DNA from: an uncultured Actinomycetes bacterium
GTDB taxonomy: Bacteria > Actinomycetota > Thermoleophilia > RBG-16-64-13
Length of the DNA: 64,000 bases
Assembly (NCBI GenBank): GCA_963747275.1
Contig: CAVVEI010000014.1
Location: forward strand, 72,774 to 136,773
Direction: 5' to 3'
Part shown: one piece after another, positions 12,251 to 51,465 of the stretch
Layout of the letters: every line of letters begins with the position of its first letter
Position numbering within the stretch: position 1 is the first letter of the stretch
Made by a program: the position numbers and the translations under genes
The notes under the pieces: model-generated
What the model saw: only the letters and a program-made list of their open reading frames with translations
Databases searched by the model: none
Told to the model about the DNA's origin: nothing

Positions 12251-12258
12251 TTGCGCCT

Positions 12259-13886: not shown

Positions 13887-13930
13887 ATCAGATCACTCTC
13901 CTTGTCAAGGGTCGGCATCGATCTCGGGGA

Positions 13931-30594: not shown

Positions 30595-30809
30595 GGGGGC
30601 GCTTGCGCACCCCATACGGCCTAGAACAGTCACAGATGGGCGCTTCGACCGATTCAGTCTGTCACGCGTCCAAAGGTTGCACAAAGCGTTGTTGCGTTGC
30701 CCCCCTATGCGTGAGATTGTGTGATTAGCACGTTCGCCGCGCGGATTCCGTGTTGGGCAGCATAGCCGCCGGCCGTCCTGCCAAGACTGACCGCGAAGGA
30801 GGGCACCAC

Positions 30810-32504: not shown

Positions 32505-33712
32505 AGGTCCTATTGGTAGGTGTGGGCGGCGTCGGCGAGGCCATCGCCGTCCTCACCAAAGACAAACCGTGGGTGGAGAAGCTGGTGCTGGCCGACTACA
32601 ACGTCGACCGGGCCAAAGAGGTCTTCGCCAAGGTCGGCTCTCCCAAGAAGATGCTGGTGGAGTTCATCGACGCCGGCGACCAGAAGCAGGTGGAGGCGCT
32701 GGCCCGCAAGCACGAGGTCGACCTGATACACAACGCCGTCGACCCGGTCTTCAACGAGGCCATCTTCGACGCTGCCTACGAAGCAGGCTGCAACTACATG
32801 GACATGGCCATGACCCTGTCCACCCCCCACCGCAAGGACCCCTACAACGTCTGCGGCGTCAAGCTGGGCGACTACCAGTTCGAGCGCGCCGATAAGTGGG
32901 AGAAGAAGGGGCTGCTCGCCTTCGTGGGCATGGGCGTGGAACCAGGCATGGCCGACGTGTTCGCCAAGTACGCCGAGAAGAACCTCTTCGATGAGATCGA
33001 CGAGATCGGCGTGCGCGACGGCGCCAACCTGGAGGTCCGGGGGTACGAGTTCGCCCCCAACTTCTCCATCTGGACCACCATCGAGGAGTGCCTCAACGCT
33101 CCGGTGGTTTGGGAGAAGGACAAGGGCTGGTTCACCACCCAGCCGTTCTCGGAGCCCGAGATCTTTGAGTTCCCTGAGGGCATCGGCCCGGTGGAGTGTG
33201 TGAACGTCGAACACGAAGAGGTGCTGCTGGCGCCGCGCTGGGTCAAGTGCAAGCGGGTGACCTTCAAGTACGGCCTGGGCGACGAGTTCATAGGCGTGCT
33301 CAAGACCATCAAGATGCTGGGCCTCGACAACCGCTTCCCCATTGACGTCAAGGGCGTCAAAGTGGCCCCACGCGACGTGGTGGCAGCCTGTCTGCCCGAC
33401 CCAGCGCACCTGGGCGACCAGATGTTCGGCAAGACCTGCGCCGGCACCTGGGTCAAGGGCACGAAGGACGGCAAGCCCCGCCAAGTCTACCTGTACCAGG
33501 TGGCCGACAACGAGACCTGCATGAAGAAGTACGGCGTGCAGGCGGTGGTCTGGCAGACGGCCGTCAACCCCGTCATCGCCTGGGAGTTGCTGGAGACCGG
33601 AGTCTGGAAGGGCAAGGGCGTGCTTGGCCCCGAGGCCTTCGACCCCGACCCGTTCATGGAACTCATGCCCAAGTACGACTTCCCCTATGGCCTCAAGGAG
33701 ATGAAGGCCTGA
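32501..33712 (+). CDS. Saccharopine dehydrogenase-family NAD(P) enzyme (carboxynorspermidine / lysine dehydrogenase-like).
   Basis: ATG 32501 overlaps the permease stop (ATGA). It starts MKVLLVGVGGVGEAIAVL (Rossmann fold) and is a 403-aa intact reading. The longer ORF from 32327 is a spurious 5' extension. Confidence 0.75.
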   Translation: MKVLLVGVGGVGEAIAVLTKDKPWVEKLVLADYNVDRAKEVFAKVGSPKKMLVEFIDAGDQKQVEALARKHEVDLIHNAVDPVFNEAIFDAAYEAGCNYMDMAMTLSTPHRKDPYNVCGVKLGDYQFERADKWEKKGLLAFVGMGVEPGMADVFAKYAEKNLFDEIDEIGVRDGANLEVRGYEFAPNFSIWTTIEECLNAPVVWEKDKGWFTTQPFSEPEIFEFPEGIGPVECVNVEHEEVLLAPRWVKCKRVTFKYGLGDEFIGVLKTIKMLGLDNRFPIDVKGVKVAPRDVVAACLPDPAHLGDQMFGKTCAGTWVKGTKDGKPRQVYLYQVADNETCMKKYGVQAVVWQTAVNPVIAWELLETGVWKGKGVLGPEAFDPDPFMELMPKYDFPYGLKEMKA

Positions 33713-33852
33713 GATGTACCGGTCGGTTACGCGGGAACAAGCGCCCCTCCCCACCCCCTCTTGCTGGGGGCGGGGAGCGTGGCGCGTCAAGGGCGGTGAT
33801 AGCTCCCTGGTGACCTGGCCGCATCCTGTCGCAACAAAGGAGCTGTGAGGCA

Positions 33853-35242
33853 ATGACCGCATCACCTGCCAAGATCGACCGTAAGCTAGTCGCCGAACTC
33901 ATGGCGCGCGAGGAGAAGCGCCTAGAGGACGAGACCCCCAAGTCGTACGAGATGTTCAAGCGGGCGTCCAAGTCGCTCGTCAACGGAGTCTCGTCCACCT
34001 ACCAGGCGCGCGATCCCTATCCCCTCTACTTCACCCACGGCAAGGGCAGCAAGATCTATTCGGTCGACGGTCGCGAGATCAGCGACTTTCACAACGGTTT
34101 CGGCTGCATGGTCCAGGGACACGCGCATCCGGCCATAGTCGAGACCATCAAGAAGCGCTGTGAGCTCGGCACCCAGTTCGCCCTGCCCACCGAGGACTCC
34201 ATCATCGTGGCCGAGCATCTGGCCAAGAACTTCCGCCTGCCCAAGTGGCGCTTTGTGAACTCCGGCTCCGAGGCCACCATGGACGCCATCCGCATCGCCC
34301 GCGCCTACACGGGCCGCGACCAGGTGCTCAAGATCTTCGGCTCGTACCACGGCCACCACGACTACGTCATGGTCAGCCTGGGTGTGGCCGACTTCGGCGA
34401 CATCGGCCCCCGAGACAACTACAAGTCCATCTCGTACGGCGCCGGTATCCCCCAGTCGTCCATAGATATGACCTCCGCGGTGCCTTTCAACGACCCAGAG
34501 GCCATGGAAGCCCGCATCGACAGGTTGATCAAAGAAGGGCGCAAGCCGGCCTGCCTGATCATGGAAGCCGCCATGATGAACCTGGGCGTGGTGCTGCCCG
34601 AGCCGGGCTACCTGCAGGCGGTGCGTGACATCACCAAGAAGCACGGCATCGTGCTCATCTTCGACGAGGTCAAGACCGGCATCTGCACGGCTCCCGGTGG
34701 CGCGGTGGAGCGCTTCGGCGTGGTGCCCGACATGGTCACCTTGGCCAAGGCCCTCGCCGGCGGTCTGCCCTCCGGCGCCATCGGCGCCACCGAGGAGGTC
34801 ATGTCGGTGGTGGCGAGCGGCAAGGTCTACCAGGTGGGCACCTACAGCGGCAACCCGCTGGCCATGGCGGCCGCCCGCACCAGCCTGGAGCAGGTCATGA
34901 CCCCCGATGCCTACAAGCACCTGAACTACCTGAACGACCGCCTGATCACAGAGCTGGACGCCATCGGAGCCAAGTACGACTTCCCCGGCTACACGGTGGG
35001 CATCTCGTCCAAGGGCTGCTTCAACTTCTCCTCGGGCAAGATCACCGACTACGAGTCGTTCATCAAGTATCCAGGACGTCGAACTCTGCAACCTGGCCTG
35101 GCTGTACAACATGAACCGCGGCGTGATCATCGCCCCGGGGCGCGAAGAAGAGTGGACCCTGTCGGTGCAGCACACCGACGAGGACATCGACCGCTTCGTG
35201 AACGCCTTTGAAGAGCTGGTCAAGGAAGTGACCACGCTAGCC
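33853..35242 (+). CDS. Class-III aminotransferase (glutamate-1-semialdehyde aminomutase-like subgroup). The frame is broken once near 35071, and no stop codon precedes the next gene.
   Basis: Motifs are FVNSGSEATMDAIRIARAYTGR, DEVKTG and TLAKALAGGLP. ORF 33853-35211 continues in ORF 35111-35776 (QDVELCNLAWLYNMNRGVIIAPGREEEW...FEELVKEVTTLA). The 3' end is set arbitrarily at the next gene's ATG. Confidence 0.7.
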
Positions 35243-36564
35243 ATGGACAACAAGGAGCTCATCGGGCTGCGGGAGGAGAACGTCCCCCGCGGCGTCTACA
35301 ACTACTTCCCCGCCTTTGCCGACCACGCAAAGAACGCGGTGATCACCGATGTCGAAGGCCGGGAGTTCATAGACTTGGCCGGCGGCATAGGCGTTATGAA
35401 CGTCGGCCACTGCCACCCCAAAGTGGTCGAAGCTGTTCAGCGCCAGGCGGAGAGGTTCTCGCACACCTCGTTCAACGTGATGATGTACGAGCCGTACGTC
35501 CGTCTGGCGGAGAAGCTCAACCAGGCCGCTCCGGGCAAGAATCCCGAAGAAGACCATGTTCGTCAACTCGGGCGCCGAGGCCGTGGAGAACGGCATCAAG
35601 ATCGCCCGCTACTACACCGGGCGAGACGCGGTCATCGCCTTCGAGGGCGCTTTCCACGGGCGCACCATGCTGGGCTGACCCTCACCTCCAAGGTGCTGCC
35701 CTACAAGACCGGCTTCGGTCCCTTCGCCCCGAGGTCTACCGCATCCCCTACGCCTACTGTTATCGCTGCCCGGTGAGCGACACCTATCCCGGACTGCGGG
35801 GGGCGCTGCGCCGAGCTTCTGACCGACGCCTTCGAGCAGTATGTGGAGGCCTCTACGGTGGCGGCCGTGATCATCGAGCCGGTGCTGGGTGAGGGCGGTT
35901 TCGTCGCCGCGCCGCCCGAGTACCTGCGGCGCATCAAGCAGATCTGCGAGGACCACGGCATCGTCTTCATCGCCGACGAGATCCAGACCGGCATGGGCCG
36001 CACCGGCAAGTACTTCGCCATCGAGCACGCGGATATAGAGCCCGACCTCTTGCTCTCGGCCAAGTCGCTGGGCTCGGGCTACCCCATCGCCGCGGTCACC
36101 GGACTGGCGGAGATCATGGACTCGCCGCCGCCGGGCTCCATAGGCGGCACGTACGGAGGCAACCCGGTCGCCTGTGCCGCGGCGCTGGCGGTGTTCGACA
36201 TAATCGAGTCGGAGAACCTGCTGACGCGGGCCGAGGCCATCGGCAAGCGCATACGCGCAAGCATGCAGGATCTGCAGGCCAAGTATCCCGTCGTGGGCGA
36301 CGTCCGCGGCTTGGGCGCCATGATGGCCATGGAGCTGGTCGTAGACCGCGACACCAAGCAGCCGGCCGCCGCGCTGGCCAAGGAAGTGCGAAACGGTGCG
36401 TTCGAGCGCGGGGTCCTCTCCCTGCTCGCCGGCGCCGGCGACAACGTGGTCAGGGTGTCTGGTGCCGCTCACCATCGAAGACGAGGTGCTGGAGCGCGGT
36501 CTAGCCGCGAGTCGAGGCCGCGCTGGAGGCAGCGGTCGCCAAGCACGATAGGGACCACCCGTGA
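35243..36564 (+). CDS. Class-III aminotransferase (4-aminobutyrate aminotransferase-like subgroup). The frame is broken about 6 times (35540, 35675, 35731, 35791, 36458, 36510).
   Basis: It starts [62 protein letters not shown]. It then reads [42 protein letters not shown] and [10 protein letters not shown] across several frames. Its stop overlaps GTG 36561. Confidence 0.75.
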
Positions 36565-39238
36565 ACAAGGTGACGCTGACCGTCAATGGCATCAGCCACG
36601 AGGTCAGCGCCGACGCCGACCTGTGCCTGCTGGACTACTTGCGTGACGGGCTGCACCTCACCGGAGCCAAGCAGTCCTGTGACAAGAAGGGCCAATGCGG
36701 TGCCTGCACCGTGATCGTGGACGGCAAGGCCGTACGGTCGTGCCTGAGCAAGGTGGCCAAGCTGGACGGGGCGGACGTAATCACGGTCGAAGGACTGGGC
36801 ACACCCGCCAACCCGCACCTCATTCAAGAGGCCTTCGTGTTGTCCGGGCGCGATCCAGTGCGGCTTCTGCACTCCGGGCATGATCATGGCTGCCAAGGTG
36901 CTGCTGGACCAGACCTTGGACCCCACCGACGAGCAGATCAAGAAGGCGTTGGTGCACAACCTCTGCCGCTGCACCGGCTATGTGAAGATCATCGAAGCGG
37001 TCCGGTTGGCCGGGCAGTTCCTCCGCGGTGAGACGACTCCCGCGCAGGTGCGGCCGGACCCGGACGGGCCCAAGGTGGGAGTCTCGCACCCCCGGCCTTC
37101 GTCGCTGGTCAAGGCCTGCGGGGTGGCTCAGTTCACCGCTGACATAGTGGTGCCGGGAGCGCTGGAGTTGGTGGGAGTCAGGAGCCCCCATCCAGCACGC
37201 TCTCATCAAGGGCATAGACACCACGGCCGCCGAGAATGATGCCGGGCGTGGTGGGCGTGCTCACGGCCAAGGACGTCAAGGGCACCAACCGGCTCAAGTA
37301 CGTCTCTCGACGACCGCCCGATACTGTGCGAGGACAAGGTGCGCTACATCGGCGACCCGGTGGCCGCCGTCGCCGCCCTCACCCGGAACCAGGCAGTGGC
37401 GGCCGCCGCGGCCGTGAAGGTGAGTACGAACTCCTGCCGGTCATCGACACCTTCGAGAAGGCGCTGGCCGCGGACGCCGTGCAGGTGCACGCCGACCGAC
37501 CCAACGTGAGCTTCAGGCAACCCGTTCTCAAGGGCGACGCCGAGAAGGCCTTTGCGGACTCGGCCGTGGTGGTCGAGGCCCGGTTTCGTCACGCAGACCA
37601 ACCACCAGGCTCCTTTGGAGCCGGAACCGGCCGTCGCGTACCTCGAAGGCGAGGGCGAGGACGCTCAGCTGGTCGTGATCGGACGCAGCATCAACATCCA
37701 CAAGCACTTGCAGATGCTGCAAGAAGGTACCGGCTGGGAGAACATGCGCTACGAGGAGGCCTTCTCCGGGGGCCAGTTCGGCATCAAGCTGGACATCACC
37801 TCCGAGGGCATAGCGGCCGTGGCTGCATTGCACTTCCGACGCCCAGTGCGCTACATACCCAGTCTGATAGAGGCCATGCAGATGACCTCCAAGCGGCACG
37901 CCTTCGACATGCAGGTCAAGCTGGGCGCCGACGCTCAGGGCCACCTCACTGCCTACAAGAACCACTTCGTGGCCGACAGCGGCGCATATTGGTCCAACAG
38001 TGACGTGGTGATACTGCGGGCCCTGCACATGCTGTCGGGGTCGTACCACATCCCCAATCTCGATATCTCCGCCACGGTGGTCTACACCAACAACCCGTGG
38101 ACCTCGGCCGCCCGCGGGGCGGGGCCGCCTCAGACCAACTTCGCGCTCGAGAGCGCCATGGACATGCTGGCCCAGAAGCTGGGCATGGACCCCCTGGAGT
38201 TCAGGGTGCTCAACCTGCTCGCTCCCGGGCAGAGCAAAGCGACCGGGCACGTGGTCGAAGAGTGGCCGGTGCTGGGTCTGTGCGAAGCCATCAAGCCGCA
38301 CTACGAGCGGGCCAAGCGTGACGCCCAAGCGGGCAGCACCGACCTGGTCAAGCGAGGCGTGGGAATGGGCACCGGTTCGTTCGGCATCGGGGCCGCCGGC
38401 GACACGGCCACCGTGTCCGTGGAGCTGGACCCGGACGGCGGACTCACCGTCTACGGCGCCGTGGCCGATCCGGGCGAGGGCAACGACTCTATGCTCACCC
38501 AGACCGCCGCGGACATGCTGGACCTGCCGCTGGACAAGGTGCAGGCTGGTCACGCGCGACACCGATCACACCGCGGCCAGCGGCCCGGCGGCCGCCAGCA
38601 GGCTCACCTACATGGCCGGTGGAGCCATGGTGAATGCCATCGAGCAGTTGCAGGCGGCCATGGCCCAGGCAGGTGCGACCAAGGCAGATGCGACTACCTG
38701 CGACCGGCTGAAGCAGGCTGGGCTGAAGACCCGCTACCTGGGCACCAAGAAGACCGGCTACTCCGGTCCGCTCGATCCGCAGACGGGCCAAGGTCCGTCG
38801 TTCGAGTCGCAGGTGCATGCGGTGCAGTTGGTGGAAGTCGAAGTGAACACGCAGACCGGCGCGGTGACCATAGTCAAGATGACTACGGCGGTCGACGCGG
38901 GCACGATCATCAACCCCCTGAACGTCATCGGGCAGCTCGAAGGTGGCATGGACATGGGCGCCGGCTACGCACTGCGCGAGCAGTACGTCGCAGGCCAGAC
39001 CAAGGACTGGAACACCTTCAAGTTCCCCAGCATCCGCACGGCCTTTGATATGGAAGTGATCATCAGAGAGACGCCGCGCAAGTACGGCACCCGGGGCTCG
39101 GTGGGAGTCGGCGAGATGACCATGGTGCCTACCGCCCCCGCGGTGGTGAACGCCATCGAGGATGCCGTGGGCATCCGCGTGACCGAGCTACCGGCGACAC
39201 CGGACAGGATCACGGCCGCTCTCGCGGCCAAAGGGTAG
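36561..39238 (+). CDS. Mop-type aldehyde oxidoreductase, copy 1 (xanthine-oxidase family; fused 2x[2Fe-2S] + Moco domains with no FAD domain). The frame is broken about 7 times.
   Basis: The N-terminus is [15 protein letters not shown]...CDKKGQCGACTV...AIQCGFCTPGMIM...CRCTGY. The Moco part reads HALIKGIDTTAAENMPGVVGVL, TNHQAPLEPEPAVAY and GVGEMTMVPTAPAVVNAI. It is traced through ORFs 36561-37031, 36880-37239, 37236-38003, 37552-39048 and 38318-39238. Confidence 0.8.
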
Positions 39239-39290
39239 GAGGCCGCCATGCCGCACTCCTGTCGACGGGAACCATAGCCCAGCGGATGCC

Positions 39291-39632
39291 ATGGAACCGA
39301 CGACCGTTCTGGGCGAGCATTTTCGAGTCGTGGCCGGCAGGAGCCTCCTCTTTGACGAGGAGGGCTTTCTGTGCCACGTGGACGACTGGACCGAGGACGT
39401 CGCCGGAGGGTTGGCGGCGGAGTCGGGCCTGGTGGGGCTGGACGACGCGCAATGGCGGGTGCTCCTATTCTTGCGCGAGTTCTACTATGAGAACGGCCGG
39501 TCTCCGCTCAACCGTAAGATCGTCGAGGGTGTGGGCATGAGTCTGCTGGAGCTGGAGCGCATGTTTCCCGGAGGCATCCGCTCCGGGGCCAAGCGCCTAG
39601 CCGGTCTGCCGAACCCTAGGCGGTGCGCATGA
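39291..39632 (+). CDS. TusE/DsrC-family small sulfur-carrier-like protein (single C-terminal Cys type).
   Basis: Intact 113-aa ORF. The family-typical C-terminus is ...LFLREFYYENGRSPLNRKIV...MFPGGIRSGAKRLAGLPNPRRCA. The penultimate Cys is present, and a Lys occupies the position of the second DsrC Cys. Confidence 0.75.
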   Translation: MEPTTVLGEHFRVVAGRSLLFDEEGFLCHVDDWTEDVAGGLAAESGLVGLDDAQWRVLLFLREFYYENGRSPLNRKIVEGVGMSLLELERMFPGGIRSGAKRLAGLPNPRRCA

Positions 39633-40801
39633 CCGCCGGCGCACTCAGCCGTGACCTGATCTATCTGGACAACGCGGCCACCTCGTTCCCCAAGCCCAGC
39701 CAGGTCTTGGAGCAGATGGTCGAGACCTACGCCCGCCTGGGGGTGTCCCCCGGCCGCGGGACGTATGACCTGGCCATGGAGGCCGCGGAGTTCGTGACCC
39801 ACGCCCGCGAGCAGGTGACGGCGTTCTTCGGCTCGAGCGACCCGGACAGGGCAGTCTTCGCGGCGAGCGCCACCGACGCGCTCAACTTGGCCATCCAAGG
39901 GCTGGTGAGCGAGGGCGACCACGTGGTCTCCACCCGGCTGGAGCACAACTCGGTCTTGCGGCCCCTGTTTCACCTGAAAGAGCGGGGCAGCATAGACTAC
40001 GACTTGGCGCCCTTCGACGGCGCCGGGCTGGTGGACCCCAGCGACATAGACAGGGCTATCCGGCCGAACACCAGATTGGTGGTGTTGTGCCACGGCTCCC
40101 AGGTGCTGGGCACCGTGCAGCCGGTGGGAGAGATCGCGGCCGTCTGCGCCGCGCACGGCGTCCCGCTGCTGCTGGACGCCGCTCAGACCGCGGGCCAGGT
40201 GCCCGTCGATATGCAGGCGTGGGGCGTGAGCGCCGTGGCCTTCTCGGGGCACAAGGCGCTGCTGGGGCCTTCGGGCATAGGGGGCTTGGTGGTGACTCCG
40301 GACCTGGAGGTGCGGTCCACTCGCTTCGGGGGCACCGGCTTGGAGTCGCACAGTCTGCGCCACACCCAGTCGTACCCGCAGCGGCTGGAGGCGGGGACGG
40401 CCAACCTGTTGGGCATCATCGGCCTCTCCCTCGGTCTGGACTATCTGCAGCGGCTCGGACTCAACGAGTCGCGCGGGCGCGAAATGGCCCTCATACGCCG
40501 CCTGCGCGAGGGGCTTGTCTCCACCCCCGGCGTGAGCGTGCTCAGTCCGGCACCGCGTGATGGCGACCTGCCCTTGCTCACCTGCACCGTGGACGGCATG
40601 GACCCCGAAGACGTAGGCGCTATCCTAGATGCCGACTACGGCATAGCCGCACGGACGGGGCTGCACTGTGCGCCCTTCGTGCATGCCGACCTGGGAGTGG
40701 ACCCCGTGGGCTCGGTCCGCTTCAGTCTGGGGCACGGGAACAGGGACGAAGATATCGATAGGGCTGTCGAGGCCATGGCACAGATAGCCGGAAGGAAGTG
40801 A
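39629..40801 (+). CDS. Class-V PLP enzyme, cysteine desulfurase (SufS/CsdA/NifS-like).
   Basis: ATG 39629 overlaps the TusE-like stop (ATGA). Features are YLDNAATSFP, the PLP-Lys motif SGHKALLGPSGIGGL and the active-site loop RTGLHCAP. The reading is intact. Confidence 0.85.
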   Translation: MTAGALSRDLIYLDNAATSFPKPSQVLEQMVETYARLGVSPGRGTYDLAMEAAEFVTHAREQVTAFFGSSDPDRAVFAASATDALNLAIQGLVSEGDHVVSTRLEHNSVLRPLFHLKERGSIDYDLAPFDGAGLVDPSDIDRAIRPNTRLVVLCHGSQVLGTVQPVGEIAAVCAAHGVPLLLDAAQTAGQVPVDMQAWGVSAVAFSGHKALLGPSGIGGLVVTPDLEVRSTRFGGTGLESHSLRHTQSYPQRLEAGTANLLGIIGLSLGLDYLQRLGLNESRGREMALIRRLREGLVSTPGVSVLSPAPRDGDLPLLTCTVDGMDPEDVGAILDADYGIAARTGLHCAPFVHADLGVDPVGSVRFSLGHGNRDEDIDRAVEAMAQIAGRK

Positions 40802-40813
40802 TAGCTCACACAT

Positions 40814-40857
40814 AGTCAGTTTGCAGTCAGTTTGCAGTCAGCTTGCAGTCAGCTTGT
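40814..40857. repeat. Four head-to-tail copies of an 11-bp direct repeat in the Mop copy-2 upstream region.
   Basis: The copies are AGTCAGTTTGC, AGTCAGTTTGC, AGTCAGCTTGC and AGTCAGCTTGT. The TTGCAG spanning the copy 3/4 junction (40843-40848) is spaced 17 nt from TAGAAA (40866-40871). Confidence 0.9.
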
Positions 40858-40901
40858 GGGCGCCATAGAAAACCAGCGAACGCGTGAAGGGACCGGGGAA
40901 G

Positions 40902-43673
40902 ATGGCACAGCTATTCTGGCTCGATATCAATGGGATCCCGCGGACCGTGTTGGCCAACCCAGACGATAGTCTGGCCAAGGTTCTTCGGGAGCAACTGGGG
41001 CTGACCGGCACCAAGGTCGGCTGCGGTGGGGGACAGTGCGGCGCCTGCTCGGTGATACTTGACGGCAAGGTGGTGCGCTCGTGCATCACCAAGATGGCCA
41101 AGGTGCCCGAAAACGCCCGAGTGGTGACCATCGAGGGCATCGGGACTCCCGAGAAGCTCCATCCGCTGCAGGTGGCGTGGATGAACTACGGGGGCGTGCA
41201 GTGCGGCTTCTGTTCGCCGGGCTTCATAGTCTCGGCCAAGGGCCTCTTGGACGAAAACCCCAAGCCCACCCGCGAAGACGTGCGTGACTGGTTCCAGAAG
41301 CACCACAACCTCTGCCGTTGCACCGGCTACAAGCCCCTGGTAGACGCGGTCATGCAGGCCGCCAAGGTCCTGCGGGGCGAAGCCACGCTGGAGCAACTGA
41401 GCGCCAACTCCAAGCCCGACAAAGACGGCCGCATCTGGAACACCTACTATCCGCGCCCGTCGGCACTGTCCAAGGTGACAGGCACCTGCGACTACGGGGC
41501 CGACCTCGGCATCAAGCTGCCCAAGGACGCTCTTCACATCGCTTTGGTCCAGCCCAAGGTCTCGCACGCCAACATCCTCTCTATTGATACCAGCGAGGCT
41601 GAGAAGATGCCCGGCGTCCAGAAGGTGGTCACTCACAAGGACGTCACCGGCACCAACCGCATCTCGGGCCTGCTCACCTATCCCTGGAGCAAGTGCGACG
41701 GCTTCGAGCGGCCCATCCTGAGCGACACCAAGATCTTTCAGTACGGTGACGTGGTGGCCATGGTGCTGGCCGACACCAAGCAGCAGGCGGAGGCTGCGGC
41801 CGCCAAGGTCAAGGTCGGGCTGGAGAAGCTCCCCGCCTACATGAACTGCCTTGATGCTGCCGCTGACGACGCCATAGAGATCCACCCCGGCACGCCCAAC
41901 GTGTTCTTTGAAGTCGACCTCAAGAAGGGCGACCACGAGAAGGTGGACGAGCTGATCAAGAGCGCGCCGTACGTGGTGGAGAACGACTACTACACCCAGC
42001 GGCAGCCGCACATGACCATAGAGCCCGACGTGGGCTTTGCCTACGTCGACACAGACGGCGTGGTCACGGTGCACTCCAAAAGCATCGCCCTCTACATGGC
42101 TCACCTGCAGATCTGCGAAGGCCTGGGCCTGGCCGAGGACAAACTGCGGCTGATACAGAACCCGCAGGGCGGCAACTTTGGCTACAAGATCGGGCCGACG
42201 CTGGAGGCGCTCTGCGCCGTGGCCACCATGGCCAGCGGCCACCCCTGCTACCTGGAATACAGCTACCACCAGCACATGGTGTACACGGGCAAGCGCGCCC
42301 CGTGCTTCTCGCACATGAAGGTCGCCGCCGACAAGCACGGCAAGCTCATGGCCATGGACTTCGACCTGATCATGGACCACGGCGCCTACTCCGAGTTCGC
42401 GGACGAGCTGCTTACCAAGGCCTGCCGCTACAGCGGCGGCGGCTACTTCGTACCCGCCCTGCGCGGCCACGGGCGTACCGCCTTCACCAACCACACCTGG
42501 GTCTCGGCCTTCCGGGCCTACGGCGGACCGCAGGGAGCCTTCTCCACCAACCTCATCATGGACGAGTTGGCGGAGAAGATGGGGCTGGACACCTGGGAGC
42601 TCATGAACCTCAACGTGCTCCGCGACGGCGACACTCTGGGCACCGGCGAGGTACAGGACGTGTATCCGCTGCCCAAGCTGCTGCAGATGATCAAGCCCGG
42701 CTACGACGAGGCGGTGGCCCGCCGCAAGAAGGAGAGTACGCCCGAGAAGAAGCGGGGCGTGGGTCTGGCAGTGGGCATCTACAACGTGGGCAACGACGCC
42801 GCCGACCTGGCCGACTCGGACATAGAGCTCAACCCCGACGGTTCGGTGACCATCTACAACACCTGGGAGGACCCGGGCCAGGGCGCCGACATAGGCACTC
42901 TCACCACGGCCCACGAGGCGCTGCGCCCGTTGGGGCTGGCGCCCGACCAGATACACCTGTACATGAACGACACCGCGCGCTGCCCCGACAGCGGGGCCGC
43001 CGCGGGCAGCCGCTCCCAGTACATGGTGGGCAACGCAATAGTCGACTCGTGCAATCAACTGATCAAGGCCATGACCAAGGCCGACGGAACCTACCGCACC
43101 CATGCCGAGATGGTCAGAGAGGGCCTGGAGACCAAGTACCACGGCCACTTCTCCGCCGCCCCCCTGTGCGGCACCCCGGACGAGAAGACCTTCCAGTTCA
43201 GCCCCCACGGCCCGGTGCCCACCATGCAGTACGGCATCTTCATGGCCGAGGTAGAAGTGGATGTCGCTACCGGCAAGACTCAGGTGCTCAAGATGAGGCT
43301 TGACTCCGACATAGGCGTCATCGCCAACCGGCAGGCAGTCGAAGGCCAGATGTACGGCGGGCTGGTGCAGGGCATAGGTCTGGCACTGTCCGAAGACTTC
43401 GACGACATCGCCAAGCACACCAACCTCATAGCGGGCGGCATCCCCTACATCAAGGATGCTCCGGATGCTCTGGAGCTCAACTTCCTGGAGACGCCCCGGC
43501 CGACGGGCCCCTTCGGAGCCGGTGGTTGCGGCGAGCTACCCCTGTATGCACCGCACGCCGCCATCATCAACGCCATCTACCACGCCTGCGGAGTGCGTAT
43601 GACCAACCTGCCCGCTCGTCCCGAAAAGGTGCTCGCGGCTCTCAAGTCCAAGGAGCTACTTGGTAGACCCTAG
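40902..43673 (+). CDS. mop: Mop-type aldehyde oxidoreductase, copy 2. It is intact and closely resembles the Desulfovibrio gigas MOP architecture.
   Basis: Uninterrupted ORF 40884-43673; I prefer ATG 40902 as the start. Features are CGGGQCGACSV, GGVQCGFCSPGFIVSAKGLL, CRCTGYKPLVDAV, HANILSIDTSEAEKMPGV and PFGAGGCGELPL. No FAD-binding domain lies between the FeS and Moco parts. Confidence 0.9.
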   Translation: MAQLFWLDINGIPRTVLANPDDSLAKVLREQLGLTGTKVGCGGGQCGACSVILDGKVVRSCITKMAKVPENARVVTIEGIGTPEKLHPLQVAWMNYGGVQCGFCSPGFIVSAKGLLDENPKPTREDVRDWFQKHHNLCRCTGYKPLVDAVMQAAKVLRGEATLEQLSANSKPDKDGRIWNTYYPRPSALSKVTGTCDYGADLGIKLPKDALHIALVQPKVSHANILSIDTSEAEKMPGVQKVVTHKDVTGTNRISGLLTYPWSKCDGFERPILSDTKIFQYGDVVAMVLADTKQQAEAAAAKVKVGLEKLPAYMNCLDAAADDAIEIHPGTPNVFFEVDLKKGDHEKVDELIKSAPYVVENDYYTQRQPHMTIEPDVGFAYVDTDGVVTVHSKSIALYMAHLQICEGLGLAEDKLRLIQNPQGGNFGYKIGPTLEALCAVATMASGHPCYLEYSYHQHMVYTGKRAPCFSHMKVAADKHGKLMAMDFDLIMDHGAYSEFADELLTKACRYSGGGYFVPALRGHGRTAFTNHTWVSAFRAYGGPQGAFSTNLIMDELAEKMGLDTWELMNLNVLRDGDTLGTGEVQDVYPLPKLLQMIKPGYDEAVARRKKESTPEKKRGVGLAVGIYNVGNDAADLADSDIELNPDGSVTIYNTWEDPGQGADIGTLTTAHEALRPLGLAPDQIHLYMNDTARCPDSGAAAGSRSQYMVGNAIVDSCNQLIKAMTKADGTYRTHAEMVREGLETKYHGHFSAAPLCGTPDEKTFQFSPHGPVPTMQYGIFMAEVEVDVATGKTQVLKMRLDSDIGVIANRQAVEGQMYGGLVQGIGLALSEDFDDIAKHTNLIAGGIPYIKDAPDALELNFLETPRPTGPFGAGGCGELPLYAPHAAIINAIYHACGVRMTNLPARPEKVLAALKSKELLGRP

Positions 43674-46029
43674 AGAGATCCAGCGGCTTGAAGACCTCTG
43701 CATCCAGGACCATGCGCCCTGGTGCGAAGCGGTCTGCCCTCTTCATGTCGACGCCAGGGGCATGCTGGAAGCGCTCGCCCGCGGTGACTTTCGGGCCGCC
43801 GCGGGCATCTACAGCAAGAAGGCGCCGTTCCCGGGCATACTCAGCCGAATCTGCGATCAACCTTGCCGCGCCGCCTGCAAACGAGGGGAGGTGGGCGAGC
43901 CCATCAGCATCGGGCTGCTCGAGAGAAGCTGTGCCGACTACGCCGGTTTTGCCCCACAAGCGGTGGGCAACGGCTCGCCTAGATCACGCCGCGTCGCAGT
44001 TGTCGGTGGCGGTGCCAGCGGCTTGACGGCCGCGCTGGAGTTGGACAAGAGACACCACGAAGTGAGCTTGTTCGAGGCATCCGACCGTCTGGGAGGGAGT
44101 CTGCGGCTCTTCCCACCCGATGTGCTCCCGCCCGACATCCTCGATGATGAGATCGGCCGCCTGACTAAGGGCAGCGTGAACACGTGCACGGGCACGCACG
44201 TAGGGCGAGATACCACGATCGCCGAATTGCTGGAGCAGTTCGACGCGGTCTACCTGGGCGTCGGCCGCGCGTCAACGGTCGCTGACGTTGGGGGGCTGGA
44301 CCCTGTCGTATCTCGAGTGATCGGCGGCGCAATCGACCCACTGACCTTCGCTACTTGCGAGCCGGGGGTCTTCGCCGGCGGCAGTCTGCGCTGTGGTGAG
44401 GCGAAGCGTGAGGCAGCGGTAGCCCACTCGCCCGTGTTGTCGATGGCTGACGGCCGCCGGGCGGCCATATCCATAGATCGCTTCTTGAAGGGAGAGTCCC
44501 TTGGCTCGCAGCGGGAGAACGAAGGGCCCTACACCACCTGTTTGTACACCAGTCTAGAAGGGATCGAGCCCAGCAAGGCGGTCCGCCCCGCGGGACCCGG
44601 CCTGGCTTACGGCAAAGACGAGGCGATCGCAGAAGCGCAGCGCTGTTTGCAGTGCGAATGCTTGGAGTGCGTGAAGGCCTGTACCTACCTGGACCACTTC
44701 AATGAATACCCTGGTAAGTGCATCCGCAAAGTGGTCAAGAACATCACCAGCCTGCCGGGCAAGAGCTATCGTACGCACACCAAGTTCATCAACGCGTGCA
44801 GCCTGTGCGGACTCTGCGGCGTCGTCTGCCCCACCGATCTCAATATGGCGGTCGTGAACCGCGGTGCAAGGCACATCATGTGGGACAAGGGCTTCATGCC
44901 GCCGGCAGTACACGATTTCGCGCTTCGCGACATGGAGTCCAGCAATGCCGAGACGAATGCCATAGCGCGCAACCAGCCGGGACATGCGTCAAGCTCCTAC
45001 CTCTTCTTCCCTGGCTGCCAGCTGACCGCTTCTGCCCCGGACCACGTGGAGCGGACCTACGCGTACCTCACCCACACGTTGGGCGGAGGGGTGGGGCTCA
45101 TGCTGGGTTGCTGCGGCGCCCCCGCCGCCTGGGCGGGAAGGCGGGAGCTTTTTCAAGACGTGCTCGACGCTTTCGAGCGGAGATGGCAGCAGATGGGACG
45201 ACCGCGGGTGATACTAGCCTGCCCGACCTGCTCCCTTATGTTCAAACAGGGCCTTTCTGATATCCCTGCCGTCTCGCTATGGGAGGTGCTGGACGCTGAG
45301 GGTATACCCGCCGACTCTCCGCGGGGTCGTGGGGAAACGCTTGCGCTTCACGACTCGTGCACCGCCAGATCGGCGCCGGAAATGCAGGACAGCGTGCGAC
45401 GCATCGTGCAGAAGCTCGGCTATCAGATCGAAGAACTCCCCTATAACCGTGACAGGACCAAGTGCTGCGGATACGGTGGCCTCGTCTATCAGGTCAACCA
45501 GGAGTTGACCGAGAAGATCATCACGTCCCGCATCGGAGAGAGCCCGACGGACTATCTGACCTATTGCACGAATTGTCGGGATTTCTTTGCAGGGAAGGGC
45601 AAATCCTCATACCATGTGCTTGACCTCGTCTTCGATGGTCGCAAGGAGGGGACTCCGGCCAGAACCGGCCCGACTTTCTCCGAACGCAGAAAGAACCGGC
45701 GCGAACTGGCCGGCAAGATGCTCACCGAGTTGTGGGGAGAGCCGATGTCTGAACCTGAGGGACACACGCTACTCAAGGTGCGGGTGGCGCCAGACGTGGC
45801 TGCCAAGATGGAGAAGGACTTCATCCTCCTTGACGACGTCAAGGCAGTCATCCACCAGGCGGAAAAGACGGGCAAGAAGCTTGCGGTCGGTTCGACAGGG
45901 CGGCTCGTAGCTCACCTTCGCCCGTATATCGTCACCTACTGGGTCGAATACGCAAGAGACGGAGATGAGTACGAGGTCTTCAACGCCTATTCCCATCGCA
46001 TGCAGATCGTCAAGGACGCGGAGCAATGA
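43660..46029 (+). CDS. Multidomain redox protein: a GltD-like N-terminal FeS + FAD domain (NAD(P)H domain missing), a 2x[4Fe-4S] ferredoxin, two CCG (HdrD/GlcF-like) domains and a ~130-aa C-terminal domain of unknown function.
   Basis: Intact 789-aa ORF. A TTG start lies 4 nt after AAGGAG and overlaps the mop stop by 14 nt. Motifs are CEAVCPLH...RICDQPCRAAC, VAVVGGGASGLTAA, GVFAGGS, CLQCECLECVKAC...CSLCGLCGVVCP, FFPGCQL...GCCG and HDSCT...KCCGYGG. Confidence 0.75.
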   Translation: MVDPREIQRLEDLCIQDHAPWCEAVCPLHVDARGMLEALARGDFRAAAGIYSKKAPFPGILSRICDQPCRAACKRGEVGEPISIGLLERSCADYAGFAPQAVGNGSPRSRRVAVVGGGASGLTAALELDKRHHEVSLFEASDRLGGSLRLFPPDVLPPDILDDEIGRLTKGSVNTCTGTHVGRDTTIAELLEQFDAVYLGVGRASTVADVGGLDPVVSRVIGGAIDPLTFATCEPGVFAGGSLRCGEAKREAAVAHSPVLSMADGRRAAISIDRFLKGESLGSQRENEGPYTTCLYTSLEGIEPSKAVRPAGPGLAYGKDEAIAEAQRCLQCECLECVKACTYLDHFNEYPGKCIRKVVKNITSLPGKSYRTHTKFINACSLCGLCGVVCPTDLNMAVVNRGARHIMWDKGFMPPAVHDFALRDMESSNAETNAIARNQPGHASSSYLFFPGCQLTASAPDHVERTYAYLTHTLGGGVGLMLGCCGAPAAWAGRRELFQDVLDAFERRWQQMGRPRVILACPTCSLMFKQGLSDIPAVSLWEVLDAEGIPADSPRGRGETLALHDSCTARSAPEMQDSVRRIVQKLGYQIEELPYNRDRTKCCGYGGLVYQVNQELTEKIITSRIGESPTDYLTYCTNCRDFFAGKGKSSYHVLDLVFDGRKEGTPARTGPTFSERRKNRRELAGKMLTELWGEPMSEPEGHTLLKVRVAPDVAAKMEKDFILLDDVKAVIHQAEKTGKKLAVGSTGRLVAHLRPYIVTYWVEYARDGDEYEVFNAYSHRMQIVKDAEQ

Positions 46030-46253
46030 GTCCCGAGGGATCCGCACCGCCCGGAGCACGCGAAGAACCGGCCACCGTCACGTGCGCCACCCACGGCGTC
46101 CCACTGGAGCTAGCGAAGATCGACGTGACATATCAGGGGCATACCTTCCCGATCGACGTGCTCTGCTGTCCCGTTTGCGGATTGGCTTTGATTCCCGAAG
46201 AGCTTGTCAAGGGCAGGATGTTCGAGGTCGAGCAGACCCTCGAGGAGAAGTGA
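46026..46253 (+). CDS. Small (75 aa) zinc-ribbon-like protein of unknown function.
   Basis: ATGA overlap with the preceding gene. It has a C-x2-H ... CCPVCG arrangement (VTCATHGVPLE...IDVLCCPVCGLALIPEE) and an acidic C-terminus. Confidence 0.5.
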   Translation: MSPEGSAPPGAREEPATVTCATHGVPLELAKIDVTYQGHTFPIDVLCCPVCGLALIPEELVKGRMFEVEQTLEEK

Positions 46254-46273: not shown

Positions 46274-47089
46274 ATGCAGCTGGAAGGCAAAGTCGCGCTG
46301 GTGACCGGCGGCGGCACAGGCATCGGCGCGGGGGTGGTCCACCGCTTCGTGGCCGAGGGAGCGAAGGTGCTCATCACCGGGCGTCGCAAAGAGATGCTGG
46401 ACCAGGTGGCGGCCTCGTTGCCCGCCGGGAGCGTCACCACATTCGTAGGCGACGTCTGCCAGGACGGGAACGCGGAGCGCATGGTCGAAGCGGCCGTGGG
46501 CATAGGTGGCAAGTTGGACATCCTGGTCAACAACGCGGCGATCGAGGCGAACGCCCCCGTCGTAGACATGGACCCGGCAGTCTGGCGGCAGACGGTGGAG
46601 GTCAATCTCACCGGCCCGTTTCTCATGATGAAGGCGGCAATCCCCAAGATGATCGAGGGGGGCGGAGGCTCCATCATCAATGTGGCGTCTCTGGCCGGGG
46701 TCGTGGCCGTGCCCGGCGGACCGGCTTACTGCGCCACCAAAGCGGGAGTGATACACCTGACCAAGCAGGTAGCGTTCGACTACGGCAAAGACAACATACG
46801 CTGCAACGTGATTTGCCCAGGTCCGGTGCGCACTACTATGCTCGAGGGGAACTTCGTACCCTTGGCGAAGCATCTCCAGACCGACATGGACGGGGTTTTC
46901 GCCAGGGTGGCCGAGAACGTGCCTCTGCGCCGCATCGCCGACCCGGCAGACATCGCGGGCGTGTTCGTCTTCCTGGCGGGCGATGACTCGAACTTCATGA
47001 CCGGCTCTACCATACTGGTCGATGGGGGAGTGCATTTCGTCGATTCCTTCGCCGCGGGGGTGGGCCACTACGGGGCGGCATGGGGTTAA
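46274..47089 (+). CDS. Short-chain dehydrogenase/reductase (SDR).
   Basis: Intact 271-aa ORF with TGGGTGIG and YCATKAGV motifs. Confidence 0.85.
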   Translation: MQLEGKVALVTGGGTGIGAGVVHRFVAEGAKVLITGRRKEMLDQVAASLPAGSVTTFVGDVCQDGNAERMVEAAVGIGGKLDILVNNAAIEANAPVVDMDPAVWRQTVEVNLTGPFLMMKAAIPKMIEGGGGSIINVASLAGVVAVPGGPAYCATKAGVIHLTKQVAFDYGKDNIRCNVICPGPVRTTMLEGNFVPLAKHLQTDMDGVFARVAENVPLRRIADPADIAGVFVFLAGDDSNFMTGSTILVDGGVHFVDSFAAGVGHYGAAWG

Positions 47090-47098
47090 CCGAGCCAC

Positions 47099-47119
47099 AA
47101 GCGGTCTTTCAGACCGCTT
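47099..47119. terminator. Stem-loop downstream of the SDR gene.
   Basis: AAGCGGTCT / AGACCGCTT forms a 9-bp stem with a 3-nt loop (TTC). Confidence 0.4.
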
Positions 47120-47160
47120 AGCGAGGCGTTCGAGGTCCTGCCCCTGTCTCTCCGCAAGAA

Positions 47161-47190
47161 GGGGCCCCATGTGCAGCGGGGCCCCTCTTT
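47161..47190. terminator. GC-rich hairpin flanked by T/A-rich runs; candidate bidirectional terminator between convergent genes.
   Basis: GGGGCCCC (47161-47168), a 9-nt loop, then GGGGCCCC (47178-47185). TCTTTGT follows on the + strand and TTCTTGC follows on the - strand. Confidence 0.5.
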
Positions 47191-47245
47191 GTCGATCAGG
47201 CGCGGGGCAGAGCCCCTGCCGCCTTCAGTTCCTACGTCCGGCGGG

Positions 47246-50006
47246 CTACTTGGCCTTGAGGGCCGCGAGCACCTTCTCGGGCCGCGCCGGCAGGTGGGTG
47301 ATCCTAGCCCCGCAGGCGTGGTAGATGGCGTTGATGATGGCCGCGTGCGGCGACGTCAGTGGGATCTCGCCGCAGCCGCCCGCGCCAAACGGCCCCGCCG
47401 CACGCGGGGTCTCGGTGAACGTGACCTCGAAGGCGTCGGGGATGTCCTTGATGTACGGCATGCCGCAGGCGATCATGTTGGTGTGCTTCTCTAGGTCTTC
47501 GAAGTCCTCCGACAGCGCCAGTCCGACTCCCTGCGACATCCCTCCGTACATCTGGCCCTCCACCGCCTGTCTGCTGGCGATGACACCCACGTCGGCGTTC
47601 ATAACCAGTTTGACGACGGTCGTCTTGCCGGTCTTGGTATCGACTTCCACCTCAGCCATGAACACCCCGTACTGATAGGTGGGCACCGGGCGCAAGGCAA
47701 ACTGGAACGTCTCCTGGTCGGGCGGGCTGCACAGATGAGCTGCGCTGTAATGTCCTTTGTACTTGGTGGGGATGCCCTCCTTGACCATCTCCTCATAGGT
47801 GCGGTACTTGCCGCCGCCCTTGTCCATCGCCTTCAGGAGTTGCTCACAGGCGTTGATTATGGAGTTGCCGACCATGAACTGAGAGCGGCTGGCGCCGGCC
47901 GGACCGCTGTTGGGACACAGGGCAGTGTCGTTCTGGACAAGACGTATCTGCTCGGGGACCAGCTTCAGCGGCCTCAGGGCTTCGTGGGCCGTGACCAGAG
48001 TACCGAGGTCGCCGCCCTGCCCAGGGTCCTCCCAGGTGTTGAAGACCGTGACCGAGCCATCCGCGTTCAGCTCGATGTCCGTGCCGGCCTCGTCGGCGGT
48101 ATCGACGCCCGCGTTGTAGATGCCTACCGCCAGACCGACGCCCGCGCTTCTTGTCAGGGGTGGACTCCTTCTTGCAGCGCTCCACTGCCTCGTCGTATTT
48201 GGGCTTCATTATCTCGAGCAGCTTCGGCAGCGGGAACACGTCGGGCACTTCGCCGGTGCTCACGGTGTCGCCTGGATGCAGCACGTTCCGGTTCATGAAC
48301 TCCCAGGTGTCCAGTCCGCACTTCTCCGCCAGCTCGTCCATGAGCACGTTGGTGGCGAACTCCGACTGAGGAGCTCCGAAGGCGCGGAAGGCGGAGCCGA
48401 ACGCGTGGTTGGTAAAGGTGACGCGCCCTCTCCCCCTGATAGCCGGTAGGTGGTAACCGCCGCCCGCGTAGCGGGTCATCTTGGTCGCAAGGTCGTCACC
48501 GAATTCCGAGTACGGGCCATGGTCCAAGAGCCCGTCGAAATCGAGGGCCACCAACTTGCCGTCGTTGTCGGCGGCGGCTCTAAGTCTCATGGTCGCCGGT
48601 GAACGCTTGCCGGTGTAGGTGATGTGCTGATAGTAGCTGTACTGCATGTGGCAGGGCCTGCCTGTGGCCATAGTCGCGATGGCGCAATAGGCCTCCAGCG
48701 TCGGGCTCAGCTTGTAGCCGAAGTTGCCGCCTTGCGGGTTCATGATGAGCCGCAGTTTCTCGGGCTTGAGCCCGAGGCCCTCGCAGAGCATGAAGTGGTG
48801 GATGTACAAGGCGATGCTCTTGGAGTGAATAGTGACCACTCCGTCTTGGTCGATGTAGGCGAAGCCCACATCCGGCTCGATGCTCAGGTGCGGCTGCCGC
48901 TGCACATAGAACGAGTCCTCTACGGCATAGGGAGCGCTCTTGATCAGTTCGTCCACCTTCTCGTGTGCGCCCTTCTTGAGGTTGCACTCAAAGAACACGT
49001 TGGGAGTCCCGGGATGGATCTCGATGGCATCATCTTTGGCGGCGGCCGGGCCGTCCATGTAGGTGGGCAGTGACTCCAACTCCACCTCCACTCTCGCCGC
49101 CGCTGCTTCCGCCTGCGCCTTGGTTTCGGCCGCTACGACGGCGAAGACATCACCGAACTGAAAGACCTTCTTGTCGCAGAGGAGGGGCCGGTCGTAGCCG
49201 TCACCTTTGTTCCACGGGAAGATGACCAAGCCGAAGCTCCTGTTGGTGCCCACGACGTCCTTGTGGGTCATGACCTTGACGACACCGGGCATCTTCTCGG
49301 CTTCACTCGTGTCTATGGAGACGATGTTCGCGTGGGACAGCTTCGACTGAGCCAAGGCAAGGTGCAAGGTATCCTTCGGCATCTTGATGCCCAGGTCGGC
49401 GCCGTAGTCGACCGTGCCGGTAGCTCTGGCGACGCCCGAAGGGCGAGGATAGTACGTGTTCCAGATCCTGCCGTCCTTATCCGGCTTGGAATTGACGCTG
49501 AGGTCTTCGATGGTGGCTTCGCCGCGCATGACCTTGGCTGCCTCCATCACCGAATCGACCAGGGGCTTGTACCCGGTGCAGCGGCAGACGTTGCGGTGCT
49601 TCTGGAACCAGTCGCGCACCTCCGCGCGAGTCGGCTTCGGGTTTTCATCTAGCAGGCCTTTGGCGGAGACGATGAACCCCGGAGAACAGAAGCCGCACTG
49701 TACCCCGCCGTAATTGATCCACGCCACCTGAAGGGGGTGGAGCTTGTCCGGGGCGCCTATCCCTTCGATGGTGACGATCTCGGCATTCTCCGGCACGCGC
49801 TCCATCTTGGTGATGCAGGAGCGAACGACCTTGCCGTCCAGCAACACCGAGCACGCGCCACACTGCCCCGCGTCACAGCCGACCTTGGTACCGGTCAGCC
49901 CCAACTGCTCCCGAAGCACCTTGGCGAGACTGTCCTCAGGATCGGCGTACACGGGTCTTGATACTCCGTTGATGTTCAGGATCACGCGCTTCGTCATGTG
50001 TGCCAA
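47246..50006 (-). CDS. mop: Mop-type aldehyde oxidoreductase, copy 3, a close paralog of copy 2 in inverted orientation. The frame is broken once near 48142.
   Basis: ORF 47844-50006 (MAHMTKRVILNINGVSRPV...KKESTPDKKRG) continues in the frame of ORF 47246-47875 (VGLAVGIYNAGVDTADEAGTDIELNADGSV...PEKVLAALKAK). The lesion sits in the CCC run at 48141-48143. Confidence 0.85.
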
Positions 50007-50041
50007 CCCCTTCTGAATCGCACCTGTGTACTCCGCCAGTG

Positions 50042-51413: not shown

Positions 51414-51465
51414 GGCGTTCTATCCTTTCCGCCACTCGTGGTGGCCGCTATGACTAGAGGCACTA

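Follow-up and report, generated by a model that had tools for sequence, protein, structure and literature searches.

Introduction

Installation of the catalytically essential terminal sulfido ligand on molybdenum in bacterial xanthine oxidase (XO)-family enzymes is known only for systems of the XdhC/PaoD type. Here we describe a three-gene cassette that may provide another route, located in a 64,000-nucleotide stretch of DNA (hereafter the window; assembly GCA_963747275.1, contig CAVVEI010000014.1, positions 72,774 to 136,773) from an uncultured Actinomycetes bacterium. The cassette encodes a Mop-like molybdenum oxidoreductase, a small protein of the DsrC/TusE family and a type II cysteine desulfurase. 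These are referred to below as the client, the carrier and the desulfurase, names that anticipate the roles proposed for them, and the last two together as the pair.

Three precedents for the sulfuration of molybdenum have been described (PMC13653126). NifS4 works with XdhC, ABA3 uses a domain resembling SufS, and FdhD mediates between IscS and formate dehydrogenase; the 2026 review of the sulfido ligand that lists them makes no mention of TusE, DsrC or TusA. The cassette resembles the XdhC/NifS4 system of Rhodobacter capsulatus and the PaoD/IscS system of Escherichia coli, in which a NifS-like desulfurase supplies the sulfido sulfur and the genes for accessory proteins accompany that of the enzyme. 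In those systems, however, the desulfurase acts directly on XdhC-bound molybdenum cofactor (Moco) and no DsrC/TusE carrier takes part, whereas the present window encodes no XdhC and just 2 among 80 related loci have an XdhC gene nearby. ABA3, MOCOS and HxB likewise use a SufS-like module for XO-family enzymes and pass the sulfur to a second module before it reaches molybdenum (PMC13653126). There the sulfur passes to a fused Moco-binding domain of the MOSC type, whereas the receiving module here would be a separate 113-aa protein of the DsrC fold, encoded beside a single-domain desulfurase. In the FdhD/IscS system, a small Cys-bearing sulfurtransferase is also proposed to carry persulfide sulfur from a desulfurase to the molybdenum cofactor, but the fold is that of FdhD, the cofactor is bis-molybdopterin guanine dinucleotide and the enzymes belong to the dimethyl sulfoxide reductase family.

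The carrier itself has two well-known kinds of relative. In the IscS-TusA-TusBCD-TusE-MnmA relay of E. coli, TusE is a single-Cys persulfide carrier of the DsrC family with the same C-terminal Cys; the protein described here, however, scores below the TusE equivalog cutoff, and in sequence DsrC is closer to it than is the only TusE-like protein with a solved structure. With DsrC it shares the fold and the C-terminal arm, which in DsrAB complexes reaches the catalytic channel, but it is without the second Cys needed for the trisulfide/disulfide cycle of DsrC and shows no link to dsrAB or dsrMK nearby. Finally, the gene set of the selenium-dependent molybdenum hydroxylases (SelD, YqeB, YqeC, SclA/EF_2568 and the SirA-like EF_2566) also places a TIGR01977 lyase and a small relay-like protein near a single-chain XO-family enzyme (PMC2276186). 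Its carrier, however, is TusA/DsrE-like rather than DsrC-like, and SelD, YqeB and YqeC were not found at the cassette. What is new here is probably the carrier and the client subfamily within desulfurase-driven sulfuration of molybdenum, by a route not yet described. No description of the trio, or of a TusE/DsrC carrier in Moco sulfuration, was found in the literature searched (full text), in agreement with a preliminary description of this DNA that had considered a TusE-like sulfur shuttle to Moco or to an apo-aldehyde oxidoreductase to be undescribed.

The cassette is conserved as an ordered trio

A profile of the carrier family, searched against 185,579 species-level genomes, yielded 235 relatives, and the best 80 loci, anchored on the carrier gene, were analysed. 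The proteins of the window were mapped onto these loci, and all open reading frames (ORFs) in their flanks (10 kb on each side) were clustered; statements on conserved neighbours below refer to these flanks. A gene of Mop architecture and ~885 aa ended just upstream of the carrier gene in 74 of the 75 loci that could be assessed, the desulfurase gene started just downstream of it in 70 of 73, and the full ordered trio was present in 65 of 68. One locus (L063) had the desulfurase gene upstream instead. Antisense shadow ORFs aside, no other gene family occurred in more than 15 of the 80 loci, and the conserved neighbours included neither dsrAB or dsrMK, nor tusA, tusBCD or mnmA, nor a SufE, SufU or CsdE partner for the desulfurase. 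The trio was repeated in independent metagenome contigs (pipeline gene calls with Pfam labels), where the gaps between genes ranged from -11 to +9 nt and no XdhC_CoxI gene lay within 10 kb of the trio.

The hosts belong to at least five phyla and include Actinomycetota, Bacillota, Thermodesulfobacteriota, Syntrophorhabdus, Chloroflexota and one member of the Acidobacteriota. The closest relatives are Actinomycetota (88% identity), from Gaiellales/Thermoleophilia-like metagenome-assembled genomes (MAGs). Cultured isolates with the cassette include Desulfocucumis palustris NAW-5 (L017), Desulfotruncus arcticus DSM 17038 (L035) and Syntrophorhabdus aromaticivorans UI (L074). When the pairwise identity matrices of the three proteins were compared over 40 loci, they correlated with r = 0.77-0.83, a value that none of 999 Mantel permutations reached. 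The trio proteins diverge together, and the conserved partner of the pair is the upstream Mop-like gene, not the canonical Mop gene downstream. A location of the pair mostly beside genes of tRNA thiolation or Fe-S assembly, and not beside XO-family genes, had been named as grounds for rejecting a role in Moco sulfuration; the pair was not seen with such genes and almost always accompanied an XO-family gene across the phyla sampled. The suggestion that Mop is the client is supported by synteny for the Mop-like gene upstream but not for the canonical Mop downstream. Likewise, the pair is indeed flanked by Mop genes on both sides, as first noticed, but the upstream one is split between frames and belongs to a different subfamily.

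Two of the loci depart from the common arrangement in other ways. L078 holds a second pair of Mop-like and carrier genes without a desulfurase gene of its own, and L039 holds carrier and desulfurase genes without the enzyme. In both loci, genes of a TupA/TupB-like tungstate/molybdate ABC transporter, whose motifs were judged by eye only, adjoin the carrier gene (L078, 1-2293; L039, 9028-9897).

Gene layout in the window

The features of the window that bear on the cassette are collected in Table 1.

Table 1. Cassette genes and other Mop-architecture genes of the window.
Feature	Positions	Strand	Remarks
Three-gene cassette	36561-40801	+	Mop-like oxidoreductase, then DsrC/TusE-family protein, then type II cysteine desulfurase
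Client, XO-family gene of Mop architecture	36561-39238	+	2 x [2Fe-2S], hammerhead, MoCoBD_1/2; ~885 aa; no FAD domain
Carrier, DsrC/TusE-family sulfur-carrier candidate	39291-39632	+	113 aa; arm AGLPNPxxC with Cys112; DsrC CysB replaced by Lys
ATGA overlap	39629-39632	+	Desulfurase start codon over carrier stop codon
Type II (SufS/CsdA-like) pyridoxal phosphate (PLP)-dependent cysteine desulfurase, TIGR01977	39629-40801	+	390 aa; Lys209, His106, Cys347
Canonical Mop	40884-43673		Downstream of the desulfurase; NF045668, 1467 bits
Third Mop-architecture gene (second canonical Mop)	47246-50327	-	ORFs 47844-50327 and 47246-48205

Direct reading of the sequence showed that the ATG of the desulfurase gene (39629-31) overlaps the TGA of the carrier gene (39630-32), so that the ATGA coupling noted in the preliminary description is real; a GTG at 39623 is a possible alternative start. 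An overlap of this type, or a gap of at most 10 nt, was also found in the metagenome contigs L084, L086 and L087 according to pipeline gene calls, and in L001, L022, L057 and L068 according to tblastn coordinates. A promoter and terminator scan of positions 36300-41000 gave no signal above that of shuffled sequences.

The carrier is a DsrC-fold protein with one conserved cysteine

The 113-aa protein matched the Pfam DsrC family (PF04358) with an E value of 3.6e-24 and 85.7 bits (cutoff, 24.9), and it exceeded the cutoff of TIGR03342, the model of the DsrC/TusE/DsvC superfamily (67.7 against 53.5 bits), which upholds the family assignment originally made from the sequence alone. Against the TusE equivalog model NF008562 it reached only 46.5 bits (cutoff, 191). 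By sequence, the solved structures nearest to it were those of DsrC as a subunit of sulfite reductase complexes (E ~1e-15), and the structure of a TusE-like sulfurtransferase ranked behind them (E 1e-6). An AlphaFold2 (AF2) model with a pLDDT of 88 superimposed on the DsrC chains of DsrAB complexes with TM scores of 0.82-0.91. The final residue block of this model had a pLDDT of 53, a low confidence that would be expected of a flexible arm, and the C-terminal tail is probably flexible.

The tail, GLPNPRRCA, retains the Cys of the C-terminal arm (CysA of DsrC) as Cys112, whereas the position of CysB is occupied by Lys in the alignment (GAKRLAG, compared with GACKMAG in 2v4j_C). Cys112 and the AGLPNP motif are invariant, with Cys present in 22 of 22 carrier homologues. 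The description of the carrier as a single-Cys protein needs amending: the window protein has two, Cys28 and Cys112, but only the latter is conserved. An exact-sequence look-up of the carrier matched no record, and NCBIfam (June 2026) held no specific model for the carrier subfamily or the client subfamily, although neighbouring families of the Mop locus do have models.

No real fusion of the carrier with a desulfurase or a molybdenum enzyme was found among the 1.84 billion database representatives searched. One candidate, P0094, in which DsrC is joined to Aminotran_5, proved to be a frameshift artefact without an in-frame AGLPNPxxC tail. Other branches of the DsrC superfamily, unrelated to the cassette, include representatives with two to five tandem DsrC domains and fusions of DsrC domains to Rrf2, MerR/HTH_17, PilZ or DUF1641 (P0051, P0056, P0068, P0098, P0101, P0133 and P0187).

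The desulfurase is a type II enzyme of the TIGR01977 family

The third protein of the trio matched Aminotran_5 with an E value of 1e-87 over residues 11-378 of its 390 aa, with no additional domain, and aligned end to end with the structures of SufS and CsdA. All catalytic residues are present, including the PLP-binding Lys209 in SGHKALLGP, Cys347 in RTGLHCAP and His106 in LEHNS, so the assignment as a SufS/CsdA-like class-V aminotransferase, and the Lys and Cys named for it at the outset, were found to be correct. Among the specific models, only that of TIGR01977 (the EF_2568 family) was passed, with 386.3 bits for the window protein and 383-426 bits for four orthologues (cutoff, 377). The next best model was that of the selenocysteine lyase SclA (NF040779), on which the window protein scored 298 bits and its orthologues 292-327 (cutoff, 525). 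The scores for SufS and CsdA (248 and 163 bits; cutoffs, 475 and 607, respectively) were also too low, as were those for NifS and IscS.

The sole characterised member of TIGR01977 is SclA of Enterococcus faecalis. The study of that enzyme found its His100 to be no clear determinant of specificity for selenium over sulfur, and the equivalent residue here, His106, is general to the desulfurase group.

The client belongs to a distinct Mop-like subfamily

The client gene of the window reads in frames 3/1/3/1/2, which corresponds to at least four single-base insertions or deletions (indels), one of them an extra G in a G run. Pfam domains were recognised on the resulting fragments. Intact orthologues from L003 and L005 nevertheless cover client residues 1-885 colinearly by tblastn, through five frame segments at 69-81% identity. 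Given that frameshifts also occur in the neighbouring aminotransferase genes and in the third Mop gene, and that the closest MAG relatives are frameshifted too, at different positions, the breaks in the client are most likely indel errors of long-read assembly and not real decay. The aminotransferase genes concerned, of class III, lie at 33853-36646 and 50042-51419 (minus strand), each broken into several frames. A stretch of 6.7 kb (39291-46029) is free of frame breaks.

On the Mop model NF045668, the client orthologues scored 779-802 bits, below the cutoff of 1100, and on the model of selenium-dependent xanthine dehydrogenase (XDH), TIGR03311, they scored 550-621 bits, below the cutoff of 830. 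Their identity to the canonical Mop downstream in the window is 34-40%. Within the subfamily, conservation is considerably higher, with at least 54% identity across phyla and 229 alignment columns conserved to at least 95%. The catalytic Glu (GvGEm), the equivalent of Arg880 and eight Fe-S Cys are all retained, and on these residues the client looks catalytically competent. Several positions diverge from Mop; near the molybdenum site, for instance, the client has TQxNHQA where Mop has QRQPH. The subfamily probably differs from canonical Mop in the coordination of molybdenum. The alignment was also inspected for an extra conserved Cys, such as might form a CO dehydrogenase-like active site or a persulfide relay, and contained none beyond the eight Fe-S Cys. 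The closest solved structure is that of the Desulfovibrio gigas aldehyde oxidoreductase (AOR), which is colinear over the full length. Collectively, the client is a distinct Mop-like subfamily without a name, common in anaerobic degraders.

XdhC and other accessory factors are rare at the cassette

The preliminary description had reported no XdhC/PaoD-type chaperone in the window and had placed the pair there instead of one. The window was searched in all six frames over its 64 kb by tblastn and phmmer --max, with E. coli PaoD, YqeB, YqeC, MocA and SelD and two XdhC-like proteins from related loci as queries. These searches returned noise only for XdhC, PaoD, YqeB, YqeC, MocA and SelD (the best match of the PaoD, YqeB and XdhC-like queries, E 0.006 and 11 bits, was treated as no hit), and the first statement is therefore correct.

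The second statement does not follow. An XdhC-family protein is encoded downstream of the desulfurase gene in 2 of the 80 loci, at ~30 bp in L044 (11539-12492) and, after an NTP transferase gene, at ~1.8 kb in L051 (where the two added genes lie at 11570-12697 and 13334-14422). Both proteins score 304-347 bits on the NCBIfam model 'XdhC family aldehyde oxidoreductase maturation factor', near its threshold (cutoff, 350), and the one from L051 is apparently circularly permuted, with the C-terminal module first. A MocA-like NTP transferase gene of the DVU_1551 family starts ~75 bp downstream of the desulfurase gene in L048 (5176-6360) and L051. These extensions, seen in 2-3 of the 80 loci, tie the cassette to Moco maturation and indicate that XdhC can coexist with the pair.

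A proposed sulfur relay to the molybdenum centre of the client

Type II desulfurases normally require a dedicated acceptor such as SufE, SufU or CsdE, and the cassette encodes none of these. Since the carrier is the only conserved candidate for this role at the loci, it may be the acceptor of the desulfurase, and we propose that the pair relays sulfur specifically to the upstream enzyme, where it would become the sulfido ligand. To this reading we give an even chance of being right. By analogy with its family, the desulfurase, with PLP on Lys209, would abstract the sulfur of L-cysteine and bind it as the persulfide of Cys347. The sulfane sulfur would be accepted by Cys112 on the flexible arm of the carrier, and the persulfidated carrier would then deliver it to the molybdenum centre of the client as the terminal sulfido ligand. 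Delivery may take place onto Moco before its insertion, in which case an XdhC-type chaperone would be encoded elsewhere, or in the assembled enzyme, where the arm could enter the substrate funnel as the DsrC arm enters DsrAB. Once matured, the client would oxidise aldehydes or related substrates and pass the electrons on through its two [2Fe-2S] clusters, as homology and the neighbouring genes suggest.

DsrC-fold proteins act by inserting the C-terminal arm into the active site of a partner. In a more specific version of the proposal, which is possible but doubtful, the carrier would itself be an in situ Moco sulfurase, whose persulfidated arm reaches down the funnel of the client and converts Mo=O to Mo=S; the reaction could be repeated after loss of sulfur and would amount to XdhC-independent activation and repair.

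It had been assumed at the start that the sulfido ligand is required throughout the XO family. This premise fails, given that the AOR of D. gigas, the prototype of Mop, is reported to be active without one (PMC3877041), and the same finding explains why the canonical Mop would have no need of the pair.

Several points weigh against the proposed relay. Each of its steps draws on synteny and on family membership, and we know of no enzyme in the client subfamily with a demonstrated sulfido ligand. The closest solved relative of the client, the D. gigas enzyme, does not need one, and the only characterised member of the desulfurase family is a selenocysteine lyase. To our knowledge, moreover, DsrC/TusE proteins do not receive their sulfur straight from a desulfurase; TusA and TusBCD stand between the desulfurase and TusE in E. 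coli. The absence of XdhC covers 78 of the 80 neighbourhoods only, and XdhC may be encoded elsewhere in the genomes. If the client indels of the window were real, the cassette here would serve a pseudogene.

Alternative explanations

Labile Mo-Se ligands occur in nicotinate dehydrogenase and clostridial XDH. In a selenium version of the cassette, the TIGR01977 enzyme would be a selenocysteine lyase, the carrier would hold selenium as Cys-S-Se-, and the client would be a selenium-dependent molybdenum hydroxylase with such a ligand. We consider this unlikely, although it is a serious competitor. The desulfurase passes TIGR01977 with SclA as the next best model, the client orthologues score higher on the selenium-dependent XDH model than the canonical Mop does (433 bits), and SelD is encoded at the edge of one locus (L074). 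We know of no residue that tells selenocysteine lyases from cysteine desulfurases in this group. Haft and Self, too, connected selenium-dependent molybdenum hydroxylases with TIGR01977/EF_2568 and with a SirA-like protein related to sulfurtransferases (PMC2276186). However, neither the SclA cutoff nor that of TIGR03311 is reached, and SelD, YqeB (TIGR03309) and YqeC (TIGR03172) are missing from the six frames of the window and from the flanks of 79, 78 and 80 of the 80 loci, respectively. The two XdhC-like neighbours, moreover, match the maturation factor model of XdhC-family AOR and not YqeB.

It is decidedly unlikely that the pair feeds another cofactor of the client, either its [2Fe-2S] clusters, in the manner of a NifS-like supply, or the dithiolene of molybdopterin, instead of the molybdenum ligand. 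The client has its eight invariant Fe-S Cys, dedicated desulfurases such as NifS exist for specific Fe-S enzymes, and IscS and TusA are described as supplying molybdopterin synthesis in E. coli. Yet the canonical Mop, which has the same Fe-S clusters and the same molybdopterin cytosine dinucleotide cofactor, is not conserved alongside the pair. No NifU, IscU, SufBCD, MoaD, MoaE or MoeB is conserved near the 80 loci, and DsrC/TusE proteins are without a known role in Fe-S assembly.

Alternatively, the carrier persulfide could be a stoichiometric co-substrate, the client inserting sulfur in place of oxygen (to give a thiocarboxylate or a thio-heterocycle) or processing the protein-bound persulfide. 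DsrC is itself a co-substrate of DsrAB, the 1:1:1 translationally coupled operon is kept more strictly than is usual for maturation factors, and the client shows subfamily-specific changes near the molybdenum site, such as the one noted above. This remains very improbable, as the XO family offers no known precedent, the client retains the catalytic Glu and other hydroxylase residues, and the neighbouring genes (aldehyde dehydrogenases, tungsten-dependent AOR and aminotransferases) suit ordinary aldehyde metabolism. Hardly credible is a role of the carrier as a regulator (RspA-like, with a helix-turn-helix-like part of its fold) beside a housekeeping desulfurase present by chance: fusions of DsrC domains to Rrf2, MerR/HTH_17 and PilZ do exist among database representatives, but neither the Cys of the arm nor the AGLPNP motif varies, and a desulfurase gene accompanies that of the carrier in 70 of 73 loci, its start codon often overlapping the preceding stop.

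Were the proposed relay to the molybdenum centre correct, it would constitute a fourth machinery for the sulfuration of molybdenum, beside XdhC/NifS4, ABA3/MOCOS and FdhD/IscS, and a third role for the DsrC/TusE fold, beside sulfite reduction and tRNA thiolation. The TIGR01977 desulfurases, a poorly understood group, would also gain an acceptor protein. The pair may be required for obtaining active recombinant enzymes of the client subfamily, and as the trio can be co-expressed, the question is directly testable.

Canonical Mop genes and their surroundings

The canonical Mop gene downstream of the cassette heads a second module (40884-46253), in which it is followed by a gene for the pyridine nucleotide-disulfide oxidoreductase/dicluster/CCG protein NF045663 ('diclust_near_Sec', 942 bits) and then by one for a 75-aa DUF7479 protein, with start codons that overlap the preceding genes. 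The module recurs only in the nearest relatives and was seen in L001, L002, L014, L015, L036 and L026. The 82-bp spacer that separates the stop codon of the desulfurase gene from the start of the canonical Mop gene contains, at 40814-40856, 3.9 copies of an 11-bp tandem repeat, AGTCAG(C/T)TTGC. The copy number varies in the closest relatives (2 in L001, ~4 degenerate copies in L002), and the repeat may serve mop as an operator or promoter element, or may be prone to slippage. The second canonical Mop, on the minus strand, is 69-73% identical to the first, is split by a frameshift and has no carrier/desulfurase pair adjoining it.

Around the three molybdenum enzymes (30729-36646 and 46274-52662), the window encodes an amino-acid permease, a saccharopine-dehydrogenase-like protein, class-III aminotransferases, a short-chain dehydrogenase/reductase and an alanine dehydrogenase. 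These genes hint at an island in which aldehydes are made from amines or amino acids and then turned into acids, with aldehydes as the substrates of the molybdenum enzymes.

In about 13 of the 80 loci, FdhA-like genes (a NuoG-like N-terminus with a molybdopterin oxidoreductase) are split at an in-frame stop, with ~45 nt between the ORFs, for example at 917-3679 in L018 and 2725-5415 in L032. A selenocysteine codon would be expected to produce such a break, and formate dehydrogenases likewise need a sulfido ligand.

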